From a virus, in UHGV virus genome UHGV-0124616: DNA of 36,013 nucleotides. One strand, given 5' to 3'. The translations under genes and the position numbers were made by a program. Each line of letters begins with the position of its first letter. Position 1 is the first letter of the stretch. This document shows, in pieces, positions 685 through 22,982 of the stretch. The notes below the pieces were generated by a model. It was not told the origin of the DNA. It saw only the letters and a list, made by a program, of their open reading frames with translations, and did not search any database.

Positions 685-759
685 GGGTCAGTCGTATAAA
701 GGTCATTACGGAAGGCTGTTAACCTTCTTATCGTGGTTCGAGTCCACGCTGTCCCGCCA
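685..759 (+). tRNA. tRNA-Asn (anticodon GUU), possibly degenerate
   Basis: Hand-folded cloverleaf: perfect 5-bp anticodon stem GAAGG/CCTTC with loop CTGTTAA; T-arm CGTGG-TTCGAGT-CCACG; 3' GCCA. The acceptor stem GGGTCAG/CTGTCCC has one central mismatch and the D-stem is only 3 bp. Confidence 0.55.
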
Positions 760-764
760 AATAT

Positions 765-840
765 GCTGGTTTAGCTCCAATGGTAGAGCAGTCGCCTTGT
801 AAGCGAATGGGTAGCGGTTCAAGTCCGTTAACCAGCACCA
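765..840 (+). tRNA. tRNA-Thr (anticodon UGU)
   Basis: Hand-folded 76-nt cloverleaf: perfect 7-bp acceptor stem GCTGGTT/AACCAGC; D-arm GCTC-CAATGGTA-GAGC; anticodon loop CTTGTAA; T-arm AGCGG-TTCAAGT-CCGTT; discriminator A plus CCA. Confidence 0.7.
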
Positions 841-18976: not shown

Positions 18977-19050
18977 CCTTGATGCCTCACCAGTTGGGTG
19001 GAATTGCATCGTAACCTACTGGATAAATACTCAATAGTACCATTTCGGTA

Positions 19051-19071
19051 TGCAATCACATCATGATTGCA
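19051..19071. promoter_or_regulatory. Perfect 8-5-8 inverted repeat TGCAATCA-CATCA-TGATTGCA; candidate operator
   Basis: Seen directly in the mnt/tailspike divergent intergenic region, about 27 bp upstream of the tailspike ATG. Confidence 0.45.
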
Positions 19072-19097
19072 TCATATCATTCGTCTGGAGCAATGAA

Positions 19098-21008
19098 ATG
19101 TCAGATATCACCGCAAATGTTGTGGTAAGCATGCCTTCGCAACTCTTCACTATGGCTCGTTCTTTTAAAGCCGTAGCCAATGGCAAAATTTATATCGGTA
19201 AAATTGACACTGACCCGGTAAATCCTGAAAACCAGATTCAGGTTTATGTGGAGAACGAAGACGGCTCTCACGTTCCTGTTTCGCAACCAATCATCATTAA
19301 CGCTGCTGGATATCCGGTATATAACGGACAGATTGCCAAGTTCGTAACTGTGCAAGGCCATTCTATGGCTGTTTATGATGCATATGGTTCGCAGCAGTTC
19401 TATTTTCCGAATGTGTTGAAGTATGATCCTGATCAGTTTCGTCAGGAACTGGCAGGTAATAGTGGTGCGTCACAGATTGGTTCCTCATCAGGGAATACTG
19501 TTCAACAAGAAATAGATCGTCTAAATAATTTTGGTTATGCTTATGGTGTTAGATTAAGCGCGTATATGCATGAAAGCGACCCCTTAACAAGCGCCCTGAC
19601 TGCATCACGGGAAAAAAGACTACCACTTGTCATTGATTGTGATGCGACATATAAAACTTTAGTGGTTTACAGTAATGACAGAATAATTGGCTGCGGTGAT
19701 CATACATTAACAAAATCCGGTAATGATAAGCCATCCATTCCACCGGCACAACAACCAGAACGCCCTTCTGGTTCGATGACTAATTTTAGTGAAATTGATG
19801 CAGGTATCGTTATTGTTCACCCTGACAATGGGTCGGCAACCAATATTATTATTTCAGGGTTTAACCTCGCGACTAACTCACATTGCGACTATGCGATACA
19901 TTGCTCTTTCATGTCTTTTACAAAAATAGAAGATATGAAGTTCAACGGGTACAAGCGTGGGATTAAATGGTACAACGCCTATGGAAATCAGCTATCCAGA
20001 ATATTTTCACTTTACTACTATTCTGTCACTGATGTTTTTTCAGACTATATTTGCTACGATTTTTCTGACGGTAACTACCCATCAGGCACATCAAATACCC
20101 TAACAAACGTAACATGCACCAACTATAAGAAATGCTATTACGTAGCAAATCTAAACTACTCTACATTTACCAATTGTGGTGGTGAAGGAGTAGAGTCACC
20201 AACACCAGTATCCACAGGAAACATCCCACAGACCTTCGAGTTTGTTAATTGCCCTAATATTGTTTTAAACACTCCATATACCGAAAATTTAAAAGGTGGT
20301 TTTATCAGAGCAGTTAGTGATGCTTCAGGTGTTTTTAGTGGTGCTTCTACAATAGTTATTAATGGGCCAGAAGCTGTTGTTGGTATAGCAGGGACAACTG
20401 CAGATGTTGGGGCTAAGTTGTTAGACATTCGCGGTTCTGTTAACTGTGTAATAAATGGCGGGTACATGACAGGTGCGGCGAGCGGGTATTTCCTTGAGTT
20501 TGGCGGGGCATCGGATGACGCAACCCTTACGATAATAGGGATGGAAATGCGCAATGTATTAGAACAAATACGAAGCCACTTTGGCTATAACGGAATTAAC
20601 TCTATAAAAGGGTTAAGGCCTATGCAGTTACTAAGAAAAGGTATAAGTGATGCAACTGGAAGTGGAATTGTTAACTGGAAAAGTGCGTCTATAGACGATT
20701 ACTTTATGAATGCTGGTAATTATACAAAAACAGCGCTTGGTGGATTTTATAAGATAGAAATTACGTTACCCATAGGATCTTCCGCATCAGGCGGAGAAGT
20801 TCAACTCTTGCTGTCAGATACGGATACAGACAATGGAGTTATAATTTCACAATGCTATGTTCCTCCAGTGTCAAGCGGTAAGTTTACTGCCTCCATAAGC
20901 TACGAGGGTAGATTGCCAGGTGGAAAGTTTCTTTATGTAAAAACTAATAATGCCAATTGGTCATCTGGATACGATCCAGACTCAATATTTAATGTTGTTC
21001 TGAAATAA
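19098..21008 (+). CDS. Tailspike protein: P22 gp9-like head-binding domain fused to a divergent receptor-binding domain
   Basis: Start at the internal ATG with RBS GGAG. The first ~110 residues ([43 protein letters not shown]...) match the P22 tailspike as recalled; the remainder is unrelated and visibly AT-richer. Confidence 0.9.
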
Positions 21009-21327
21009 CAATATTTATAATGATGCACGCAAAGCTTTGTACTGGATTGCAAGGCTTTATGTCATTCGATAGTTAAGGTGGGTCACTCCACCTTCCCATC
21101 AAGCCAGTCAGCCCACCACTGCATCATTTCTCTGCATTTATCGTAGTTGATGCGTCACTATCACACTGTAATAGCTTATTACTGGTTTGCAGACAGGTAG
21201 TCATTAACAGATACCTGCGCATGAAGACGGAACTAGTCCAGATGTGATATTTGTGGTGATCACATACATCATCAACGATGCTCGTTATGGTGAGTTTGAT
21301 GACTACCCACTGAGGTGAAAATTGTGT

Positions 21328-21623
21328 TGTGTACCAAATTGCGTACCAAACTAAAATCACAAATCATGAAACCCTTGTTCATGGCGGTTCTCAGGGGTGT
21401 TGCGCGTAATCGTGAAAGAGGAAGGTAGGTTGTTTATCTGTGTCTGTCATTGTCTAGCATTGTCCACTGTAGTTAATTAACTGTATGTTATAACTCGAAA
21501 AACAACCTTTTTTTAACCTGAGTATGTCTACGAACGTCAAATATAGTTGTTTACTGTGCGCTGTTGTCCATGTGATATTGTGTACCAGATGTGTACCAAA
21601 CTATTAATTCTGAGCGTACCAAA
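21328..21623 (+). promoter_or_regulatory. Candidate attP region: five direct copies of G(T/C)GTACCA(A/G)A, putative integrase arm-type sites
   Basis: Copies at 21329-21338, 21341-21350, 21581-21590, 21591-21600 and 21614-21623, in two clusters flanking about 230 bp just upstream of int. Confidence 0.4.
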
Positions 21624-21631
21624 TATTATTT

Positions 21632-22810
21632 ATGGCTATAAGCGACACAAAACTGCGTACTATTTATGGTAAACCATATTCGGGCCCACAAGAAGTGGCT
21701 GATGCCGATGGCCTCAGCGTACGAATTTCACCGAAGGGGGTCATCCAGTTCCAGTACCGCTATCGCTGGCATGGCAAGCCTAATCGACTTGGGCTTGGTC
21801 GATACCCATCCCTGTCTTTGAAGGATGCCAGACAGATCACTGCTGACTTGCGAAAGCTCTATTTCTCAGGAACGGATCCACGCACTTATTTTGAAGAGAA
21901 GGTGGAGAACTCCATGACGGTCGCCCAGTGTCTCGACTACTGGTTCGACAACTACGTCTCTACAACTCTCAGAGAAAAGACCCAGGCACTTTACCGATCA
22001 ACGGTTATGAAGCGCATGCATGACGCCTTTCCTAATCGTCCGGCATCTTCTATCACGGTTAAGCAATGGGTTGACCTGCTTACCGAAGAAGAAAGAGATA
22101 ATCCACGCCGAGCAAGGCAGGTGCTAAGTCAACTAAGATCAGCAATAAGTTGGTGCATGCGGCGCCAGTTGATAGATAGTTGCGCAATTATGAGCATCCA
22201 GCCAATGGACTTCGGCTCCCGCGCTGAGGTAGGGGATCGGGTACTGTCGTATCACGAACTGGCTAAGATTTGGCTTGCTATTGAAAGAAGCCGTGCGTCC
22301 ACGTCAAACAAGCTCCTTCATCAGATGCTTATGCTGTGGGGGGCGAGGCTCTCAGAGCTTAGGCTGGCAAAAAAGACAGAATTTGACCTGCTGGAAAACG
22401 TATGGACCGTACCGAAAGAGCATAGCAAGATGGGTAATGTTATCCGCCGTCCAATCTTCGAACAAATTAAGCCTTTCCTCGAAAAGGCCATGACAACGTA
22501 CAATGATGTTCTTTTCCCTGGAGAAGACATAAACAAACCGATCAGCATCGCTGCAGCCAACCGATTCGTAAATAGAATAAGGGGAGGGATGGATCTAGGT
22601 TACTGGCGAACACACGATTTCAGAAGAACGCTTGTTACACGTCTGTCCGAGATGAATGTCGAGCCTCATGTTACTGAGCGAATGCTCGGTCATGAACTTG
22701 GCGGGATAATGTCCGTATACAATAAACACGACTGGATAGAGGCTCAGCGCAAAGCGTATGAGCTTCACGCTGATAAATTGTTCTGGCACATCAGGAGCAT
22801 TTCTGATTAA
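21632..22810 (+). CDS. int: Tyrosine integrase, P4-like subfamily
   Basis: 392 aa. N-terminus ISDTKLRTIYGKP...GLSVRISPKGVIQFQYRYRWHGKPNRLGLGRYPSLSLKDAR is typical of the P4-type arm-binding domain. C-terminal HDFRRT motif. Confidence 0.9.
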   Translation: MAISDTKLRTIYGKPYSGPQEVADADGLSVRISPKGVIQFQYRYRWHGKPNRLGLGRYPSLSLKDARQITADLRKLYFSGTDPRTYFEEKVENSMTVAQCLDYWFDNYVSTTLREKTQALYRSTVMKRMHDAFPNRPASSITVKQWVDLLTEEERDNPRRARQVLSQLRSAISWCMRRQLIDSCAIMSIQPMDFGSRAEVGDRVLSYHELAKIWLAIERSRASTSNKLLHQMLMLWGARLSELRLAKKTEFDLLENVWTVPKEHSKMGNVIRRPIFEQIKPFLEKAMTTYNDVLFPGEDINKPISIAAANRFVNRIRGGMDLGYWRTHDFRRTLVTRLSEMNVEPHVTERMLGHELGGIMSVYNKHDWIEAQRKAYELHADKLFWHIRSISD

Positions 22811-22982
22811 CGCCACCGTTAAGAATCCACCCTTCAACAGCTTCACGAAGGTATGATTTGGGGTGGGTTCTGACTGGCTTCGGAAATCCGTGCCGTTTGG
22901 TATAGTTCCAGATTGTCTGACGTGATGAAACACCGAGCTTGTTCATCACTTCTTTCTCAGGAATCAGACTGGTATCGGTCAT
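22791..22982 (-). CDS. AlpA-family DNA-binding protein, probable excisionase/regulator
   Basis: 63 aa with ...LIPEKEVMNKLGVSSRQTIWNYTKRHGFPKPV..., consistent with the AlpA/Xis winged-helix family. RBS GGAG. Convergent with int and overlapping it by 20 nt. Confidence 0.65.
   Translation of the reverse strand: MTDTSLIPEKEVMNKLGVSSRQTIWNYTKRHGFPKPVRTHPKSYLREAVEGWILNGGVNQKCS

Follow-up and report, generated by a model that had tools for sequence, protein, structure and literature searches.

The 2851-type attachment site is that of Stx2c phage 2851 and is also known from phages mEp234, HK544, HK140 and Sf101; it is already published, in the Sf101 paper, that both 2851 and Sf101 integrate at the sbcB 5′ end. 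More distant systems provide the mechanistic background. The attP of P4 lies immediately 5′ of int, as in the locus described here, its integrase likewise carries an Arm-DNA-bind_3 domain, and autorepression by P4 Int has been reported. For Phi24B, the published minimal attP measures between 350 and 427 bp with near-equal arms around a 24-bp crossover, IHF is reported not to be required, and the integrase-binding sequences are described as still to be identified. In the IntS/TorI system of KplE1 (CPS-53), the int promoter is located inside attL over the arm-type sites, Int represses its own gene, and the RDF is expressed separately; unlike the locus studied here, KplE1 targets the tRNA gene argW and has an integrase of another lineage.

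We consider it highly probable that positions 21329-21623 of the window (the whole stretch of DNA that was analysed, 36,013 bp) make up a 2851-type sbcB attP in which five GYGTACCARA repeats serve as Int arm-type sites. The attP itself is not new, being published and annotated in GenBank as "2851-type"; the assignment of arm sites, their geometry across the integrase clade and the proposed rebuilding of the sbcB 5′ end would be incremental additions to it. An earlier note had called a candidate attP between the tailspike gene and int from sequence alone. This call is correct and concerns a real feature of a familiar type, but the target that the note expected, a tRNA or tmRNA 3′ end, is wrong. 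The locus resembles 2851 attP in its Int, its 13-bp core, its flanking DNA and its sbcB target and, unlike the 2851-type records, it resides in a P22-like podophage, after the tailspike gene and the remnant of an IntS-type integrase gene. From 21186 rightwards to beyond xis, the DNA shares ~98% identity with the integration modules of mEp234, HK544, HK140, Sf101 and APC_JM3.2, and ~98% identity from 21186 extends also to Stx phages 2851, 1717 and others. The main features of the module and its left neighbour are as follows.

19050-21008, ORF: P22-type tailspike gene (Head_binding domain, E 2.7e-67)
21405-21417, no strand: attP core, 13-bp identity with attB, CGTAATCGTGAAA (annotated core in relatives, and junctions)
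21632-22810, plus strand: int, tyrosine integrase with an N-terminal arm-DNA-binding domain (Pfam domains)
22791-22982, minus strand: putative AlpA-like excisionase (RDF) gene, xis, a 63-aa ORF (annotation of homologues, and weak Pfam matches)

The position of the core is supported by annotation and by prophage junctions. GenBank records of mEp234 and HK544 carry a 13-bp "prophage attachment site (type 2851)" that aligns to 21405-21417, in Stx2 phage 1717 the identical 13 bp bear the annotation of an insertion duplication, and prophage-form records begin exactly at 21405. The DNA of the module is present in 670 of the 5426 complete E. coli genomes, typically split over two places. In these prophages, which carry the same module and are not lysogens of this exact phage, attL covers 21405-21631 and adjoins sbcB, while attR runs from 21186 to ~21434 and adjoins the sbcB 5′ region beside dacD. 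The three-way alignment breaks at the core, and strand exchange must fall inside these 13 bp. When attB was rebuilt from the two host flanks, it was 100% identical and uninterrupted in non-lysogens (intact in 4841/5426 genomes). The exact core is found upstream of a 2851-like int, with sbcB junctions in same-module prophages; it lies between the two repeat clusters, where the earlier note had predicted it, and the junction mapping which that note had proposed bears out the attP. Read from the minus strand, the core is TTT CAC GAT TAC G and encodes F-H-D-Y-E, codons 13-17 of the host exonuclease I gene, sbcB, the native N-terminus of which is MMNDGKQQSTFLFHDYETFG. The identity with host DNA inside 21351-21580 comprises 13 bp and is located in sbcB coding sequence rather than in a tRNA or tmRNA gene. 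As a separate observation, the chromosome of E. coli O157:H7 MB9-1 (NZ_CP040107.1, 2014984-2015429) contains an intact P arm, core, P′ arm and int; this attP-like sequence adjoins the end of an nleG7-carrying prophage, which indicates tandem prophages at sbcB.

Domain searches agree with the naming of tailspike and int as the neighbours of the region. Int contains PF13356 (Arm-DNA-bind_3, E 8e-18, aa 4-85), with 3JTZ (E 1.8e-11) and 3JU0 as PDB relatives of the N-domain, and PF00589 (Phage_integrase, E 1e-16, aa 204-366), and lambda Int (5J0N/1Z1B, E 4e-7 to ~1e-7) is also among its PDB relatives. It is 98-99.7% identical to Int of mEp234, HK544, 1717 and other 2851-type Stx phages. Its description as a P4-type integrase holds as to relatedness, but the relationship is distant, with only 24% identity to P4 Int over 326 aa (E 4e-13). 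The ORF assigned to xis has AlpA/HTH_17 matches below the Pfam cutoffs (17.8 bits vs 21), its homologues in mEp234, HK544 and Phi24B are annotated as AlpA family or excisionase, and its product is 44% identical to the Xis of phage 86 and the Phi24B type. The two genes are convergent with a 20-bp overlap of their 3′ ends (22791-22810), so that no common promoter is possible. A convergent int/xis arrangement is also present in the Phi24B-type module.

The five repeats, all found as exact pattern matches, are listed below with the arm-type sites that they very probably represent, an assignment based on sequence comparison.

21329-21338, plus strand: P-arm repeat 1, GTGTACCAAA, putative Int arm-type site P1
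21341-21350, plus strand: P-arm repeat 2, GCGTACCAAA, putative Int arm-type site P2
21580-21589, plus strand: P′-arm repeat 1, GTGTACCAGA, putative Int arm-type site P′1
21591-21600, plus strand: P′-arm repeat 2, GTGTACCAAA, putative Int arm-type site P′2
21614-21623, plus strand: P′-arm repeat 3, GCGTACCAAA, putative Int arm-type site P′3

A pattern search of the whole 36,013-bp window returned exactly these five GYGTACCARA matches, all on the plus strand, whereas dinucleotide-preserving shuffles contained 0.17 on average and at most 2 (five were reached in 0/100). Allowing two mismatches gave 69 matches where 80 were expected in the window, that is, without enrichment, and no extra copy in 21009-21631; because the relaxed search adds nothing, we take the five exact copies as the whole repeat family. 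The count thus upholds the earlier description of five direct copies of G(T/C)GTACCA(A/G)A in two clusters and in one orientation. The first cluster has the coordinates originally given, while the second starts at 21580 and not at 21581. Of the ~230 bp of AT-rich DNA said to separate them, the length stands (229 bp), and the AT-richness is confined mainly to the int side: GC content is 34-36% in 21418-21579 and 46% in 21351-21404, compared to 48% for the whole window. P1 and P2 have a 12-bp period, and 54 bp separate the end of P2 from the core. The core is separated by 162 bp from the P′ trio, which adjoins the start of int; P′1-P′3 occupy the 52 bp preceding the int ATG, and P′3 ends 8 nt before it.

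This layout is conserved far beyond the 2851 type. Relatives of Int were collected by tblastn (61% identity for Salmonella phage SEN34 and Klebsiella ST340-VIM1phi10.1, 56% for Stx2 phage 86 and Phi24B, and 49% for Cronobacter ENT39118), and further ones at 58-93% identity came from an IMG/VR scan. The P′ arm was compared in 16 non-redundant sequences and the P arm in 11 unintegrated genomes. Three GTAC-centred direct repeats upstream of int are invariant in 16/16 non-redundant relatives (49-100% Int identity), and across these 16 sequences the 12 GTAC columns are 100% conserved, whereas the other 70 upstream columns average 64%. All 11 unintegrated relatives also have two GTAC repeats, 12 bp apart in period, at ~300 bp before int, and at prophage junction loci host DNA stands in place of this pair. 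The GTAC offsets from the start of int are given below.

Window: P arm -301, -289; P′ arm -50, -39, -16
L037 (Int 73%): P arm -300, -288; P′ arm -49, -38, -15
L065 and SEN34 (Int 61-62%): P arm -302, -290; P′ arm -50, -39, -15
Phage 86 (Int 56%): P arm -296, -284; P′ arm -52, -41, -17
ENT39118 (Int 49%): P arm -280, -268; P′ arm -38, -27, -7

The common layout places two GTAC repeats to the left of the core, at ~55-75 bp, and three directly against the int start codon; for Int identities of 56% and above, the P′-arm offsets vary by no more than ±2 bp even as the intervening DNA diverges. L065 has another core and another target gene yet the same arm layout, which makes the layout independent of the target. 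In the Klebsiella relatives L062, L065 and L008 (Int ~61%), the arm-repeat layout is the same and the core differs (…GTAATCTTCGGCAAGG…), and the prophage form adjoins a host gene annotated "intracellular protease". Because this core differs and adjoins another coding gene, it appears that the clade was retargeted with its arm geometry retained. The bases flanking the motif vary by lineage and match between both arms of one phage, from GYGTACCAAA in the window to GTACA(A/T/G)A in L037 and (G/A)AGTACA in SEN34. The earlier suggestion that the repeats are arm-type sites is borne out by their presence on both arms, their single orientation, the preservation of their positions to 49% Int identity and their P4-like layout. 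We base the arm-type assignment on the conservation of this layout across relatives together with its match to the annotated plan of P4.

In P4, the annotated far-arm pair has a 12-bp period and a gap of 53 bp to the core, compared to 54 bp here; three arm repeats, two of them in tandem, are located at or overlapping the start of int, as here. The third P′ copy of P4 is inverted, unlike here, its repeat is GGGGGCAT vs GYGTACCA here, its core comprises 20 bp in a tRNA-Leu gene vs 13 bp in sbcB, and its gap from core to P′ arm is 112 bp vs 162 bp. Phi24B and Stx2 phage 86, with Int 56% identical, share the int/xis arrangement and the 2+3 GTAC layout, while the 24-bp core and primary target of Phi24B are unlike those here. 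The experimentally supported TTG start of Phi24B int aligns with the int ATG here; the Phi24B literature places the int transcription start "46 bp downstream of the expected start codon". If the Phi24B core begins ~219 bp before int, as prophage records suggest, a 350-bp construct would lose the int-proximal repeat; the minimal size of 350-427 bp fits a need for this repeat and is consistent with it without being proof. A search for the IHF site WATCAANNNNTTR or its relaxed form found none in 21300-21640, which is compatible with the IHF independence of Phi24B and proves nothing.

The arm sites of lambda attP, two in the P arm and three in the P′ arm (P1, P2 and P′1-3), are bound by a heterobivalent Int. 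Lambda Int is detectably homologous to Int here and the 2+3 arm plan is the same, whereas arm lengths and motif are different; also unlike lambda, int here is transcribed away from the core, with a candidate promoter of its own. The locus has a catalytic domain, an arm-binding domain, an attB-identical core with junctions, and repeats on both sides that are unrelated to the core, the components of a heterobivalent attP. In our model, a P22-like E. coli podophage would have acquired a 2851-type integration module by mosaic exchange. Int would recombine the core at 21405-21417 with the identical sequence in host sbcB codons 13-17 while its N-terminal domain binds the two P-arm and three P′-arm GYGTACCARA sites, so that an intasome joins arms and core as in lambda and P4. 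Occupancy of the P′ trio would moreover repress int itself, as with P4 Int and KplE1 IntS, and the DNA between core and P′ arm would supply sbcB with a new start and 12 codons so that it stays an intact ORF in the lysogen.

The alternative that survives best, which we nevertheless regard as unlikely, is that the GTAC repeats bind the AlpA-like excisionase or another regulator and that the true Int arm sites are elsewhere, for example at GTYCAY, a second conserved family of direct repeats in the P′ arm. Copies of this family in the window are listed here.

21377-21382, plus strand: GTTCAT, a GTYCAY copy in the P arm, absent at this place in the close relative L012
21462-21467, plus strand: GTCCAC, a GTYCAY copy at -170 from the int start, offset kept in relatives
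21566-21571, plus strand: GTCCAT, a GTYCAY copy at -66 from the int start, its last base being the first base of the -10-like element described below

Across 13 related loci, GTYCAY occurs 31 times forward and 0 times in reverse, clustering at ~-170, ~-100 and -66 from int. The -170 copy has the same offset in L012, L027, L037 and L040 and about the same in L009, and the -66 copy is found at -65 to -68 in 10/13 loci. That GTAC could be the excisionase motif is made conceivable by the resemblance between the GTAC and GTYCAY motifs in the SEN34 group (GTACAT), by the int-proximal action of the RDFs in KplE1 and P4, and by the divergence of the Xis sequence along with the GTAC motif; when the Int N-domain and Xis were both compared against motif flavour, both tracked phylogeny. 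RDF sites, however, are normally restricted to one arm, whereas GTAC repeats are found on both, and their 2+3 plan and 12-bp period match the annotated Int arm repeats of P4. The conserved GTYCAY copies, by contrast, are restricted to the int-proximal arm, as expected of RDF sites. The GTYCAY repeats may be sites for the AlpA-like excisionase or additional Int sites.

Much less probable still is the idea that the repeats are only operators controlling int and a leftward transcript, with no role in recombination. The P′ trio fits this idea in being bracketed exactly by a -10-like element and the int ATG.

21571-21579, plus strand: TGtGATATT, extended -10-like element, candidate int promoter (conservation)

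Because int is convergent with xis, it requires a promoter of its own in the P′ arm. The block GT(C/T)CATG(T/C)(G/A)ATATTG, which contains TGnGATATT, is kept in 14/16 non-redundant relatives immediately 5′ of P′1, and we conjecture that this candidate drives int. A sigma-70 consensus scan of both strands in 20950-21700 returned no promoter, the -10-like element scoring under threshold, and no terminators were found on either strand of the same interval; an sbcB promoter in the region is likewise conjectural, with no candidate nameable from the consensus scan. In KplE1 and P4, Int represses int from arm sites that overlap the int promoter, an arrangement with which the orientation here agrees. 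Since the P′ trio is here also placed between the -10-like element and the int ATG, Int at P′1-P′3 probably represses its own gene as well, by analogy to these systems. The P-arm pair, located 280 bp before int and downstream of a dead HumD remnant, has no explanation on this view: its spacing to the core is constant in every unintegrated relative, and in the prophage state the whole prophage separates it from int.

Finally, a classical P4-like attP aimed at a tRNA or tmRNA 3′ end, with its core somewhere in 21351-21580, as many integrases of this domain architecture are known from the literature to target tRNA genes, can for practical purposes be dismissed: ARAGORN found no tRNA-like element in the region, Rfam gave no match in 20900-21750 even at E<=1, and the core is within the sbcB coding sequence, to which junctions map in hundreds of genomes and in agreement with the literature. 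The only tRNAs that ARAGORN reports in the window are the adjacent tRNA-Asn(GTT) and tRNA-Thr(TGT) at 685-840 (plus strand).

Part of the DNA between core and P′ trio would serve as a replacement 5′ end for sbcB.

21418-21450, minus strand: phage-borne substitute 5′ end of sbcB (PGAP start in lysogen N50, and conservation)

The substitute start codon is at 21450-21448, followed in frame to give 11 codons (MTDTDKQPTFL) in 21450-21418, with the twelfth, F (TTT), inside the core. In translation the substitute N-terminus reads MTDTDKQPTFLF and joins host HDYE... in frame after integration. In lysogen N50, PGAP placed the sbcB start codon at the phage-borne ATG and called sbcB intact. An in-frame ATG, GTG or TTG is present 12-13 codons before HDYE in 12 relatives, in which the stretch (Q)(P/N/S)TF(L/Y)(F/I) is kept with differences almost only at third positions, and this bias argues for selection on the protein. 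We suggest that sbcB remains an intact ORF in the lysogen by means of the phage start and ~12 codons, and that it may be expressed in this form. In the literature, prophage occupancy of sbcB is usually described as disruption. The sequence indicates instead a gene rebuilt with a phage-encoded N-terminus, and this bears on the recombination and repair phenotypes of such lysogens.

The remainder of the 623-bp region between tailspike and int is likewise not empty spacer; the region holds two gene remnants and the short coding piece. Outside the integration module, the window represents a P22-like E. coli podophage with APC_JM3.2 and IME10 as close relatives. Immediately following the tailspike gene, at ~21078-21150 (minus strand), is the 3′ remnant of an IntS-type integrase gene ending ...REMMQWWADWLDGKVE*, which matches the end of intS beside tRNA-Arg in E. 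coli, with DNA similarity over 21022-21146. Judged from this match, the remnant of an argW-targeting integrase survives from a former integration module, since replaced by the 2851-type module. HumD/UmuD′ is a translesion-polymerase subunit, and a C-terminal remnant of such a gene (~35 codons; NF051876, E 4.5e-9) occupies 21186-21318 on the plus strand. Similarity begins at 21186 for mEp234, Sf101, EC.P3 and E212, and at 21248-21255 for APC_JM3.2, HK140 and HK544; from these alignments, 21186 is a mosaic joint, the left end of the imported module, and this joint is absent from every database record searched. Because the HumD remnant is the real coding signal and ends at 21318, the P-arm repeats are non-coding. 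An ORF on the minus strand (21124-21360, 78 aa) that overlaps the P-arm repeats has no Pfam match and is probably spurious.

The attP, the core and the sbcB target were already in the literature and in GenBank, and the present results confirm that reading of the sequence alone had located a real attP. The modest addition is a map that places five probable Int arm sites, in a layout kept throughout an integrase clade of medical relevance that includes the Stx2c phages at sbcB and the Phi24B-type Stx2a phages; arm repeats are neither mentioned in the Sf101 paper nor annotated in the 2851-type GenBank records, and the Phi24B papers are without defined Int-binding sequences. Taken together, that the GTAC 2+3 layout is the Int-binding architecture of the whole 2851/SEN34/Phi24B clade and that the replacement of the sbcB 5′ end has been selected is a tentative proposition, for which we would claim slightly less than even likelihood. 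If it is true, the 2+3 layout would explain the unusually long attP of Phi24B (350-427 bp), and lysogeny would not knock out exonuclease I but place it under phage-supplied expression signals, presumably including a promoter.
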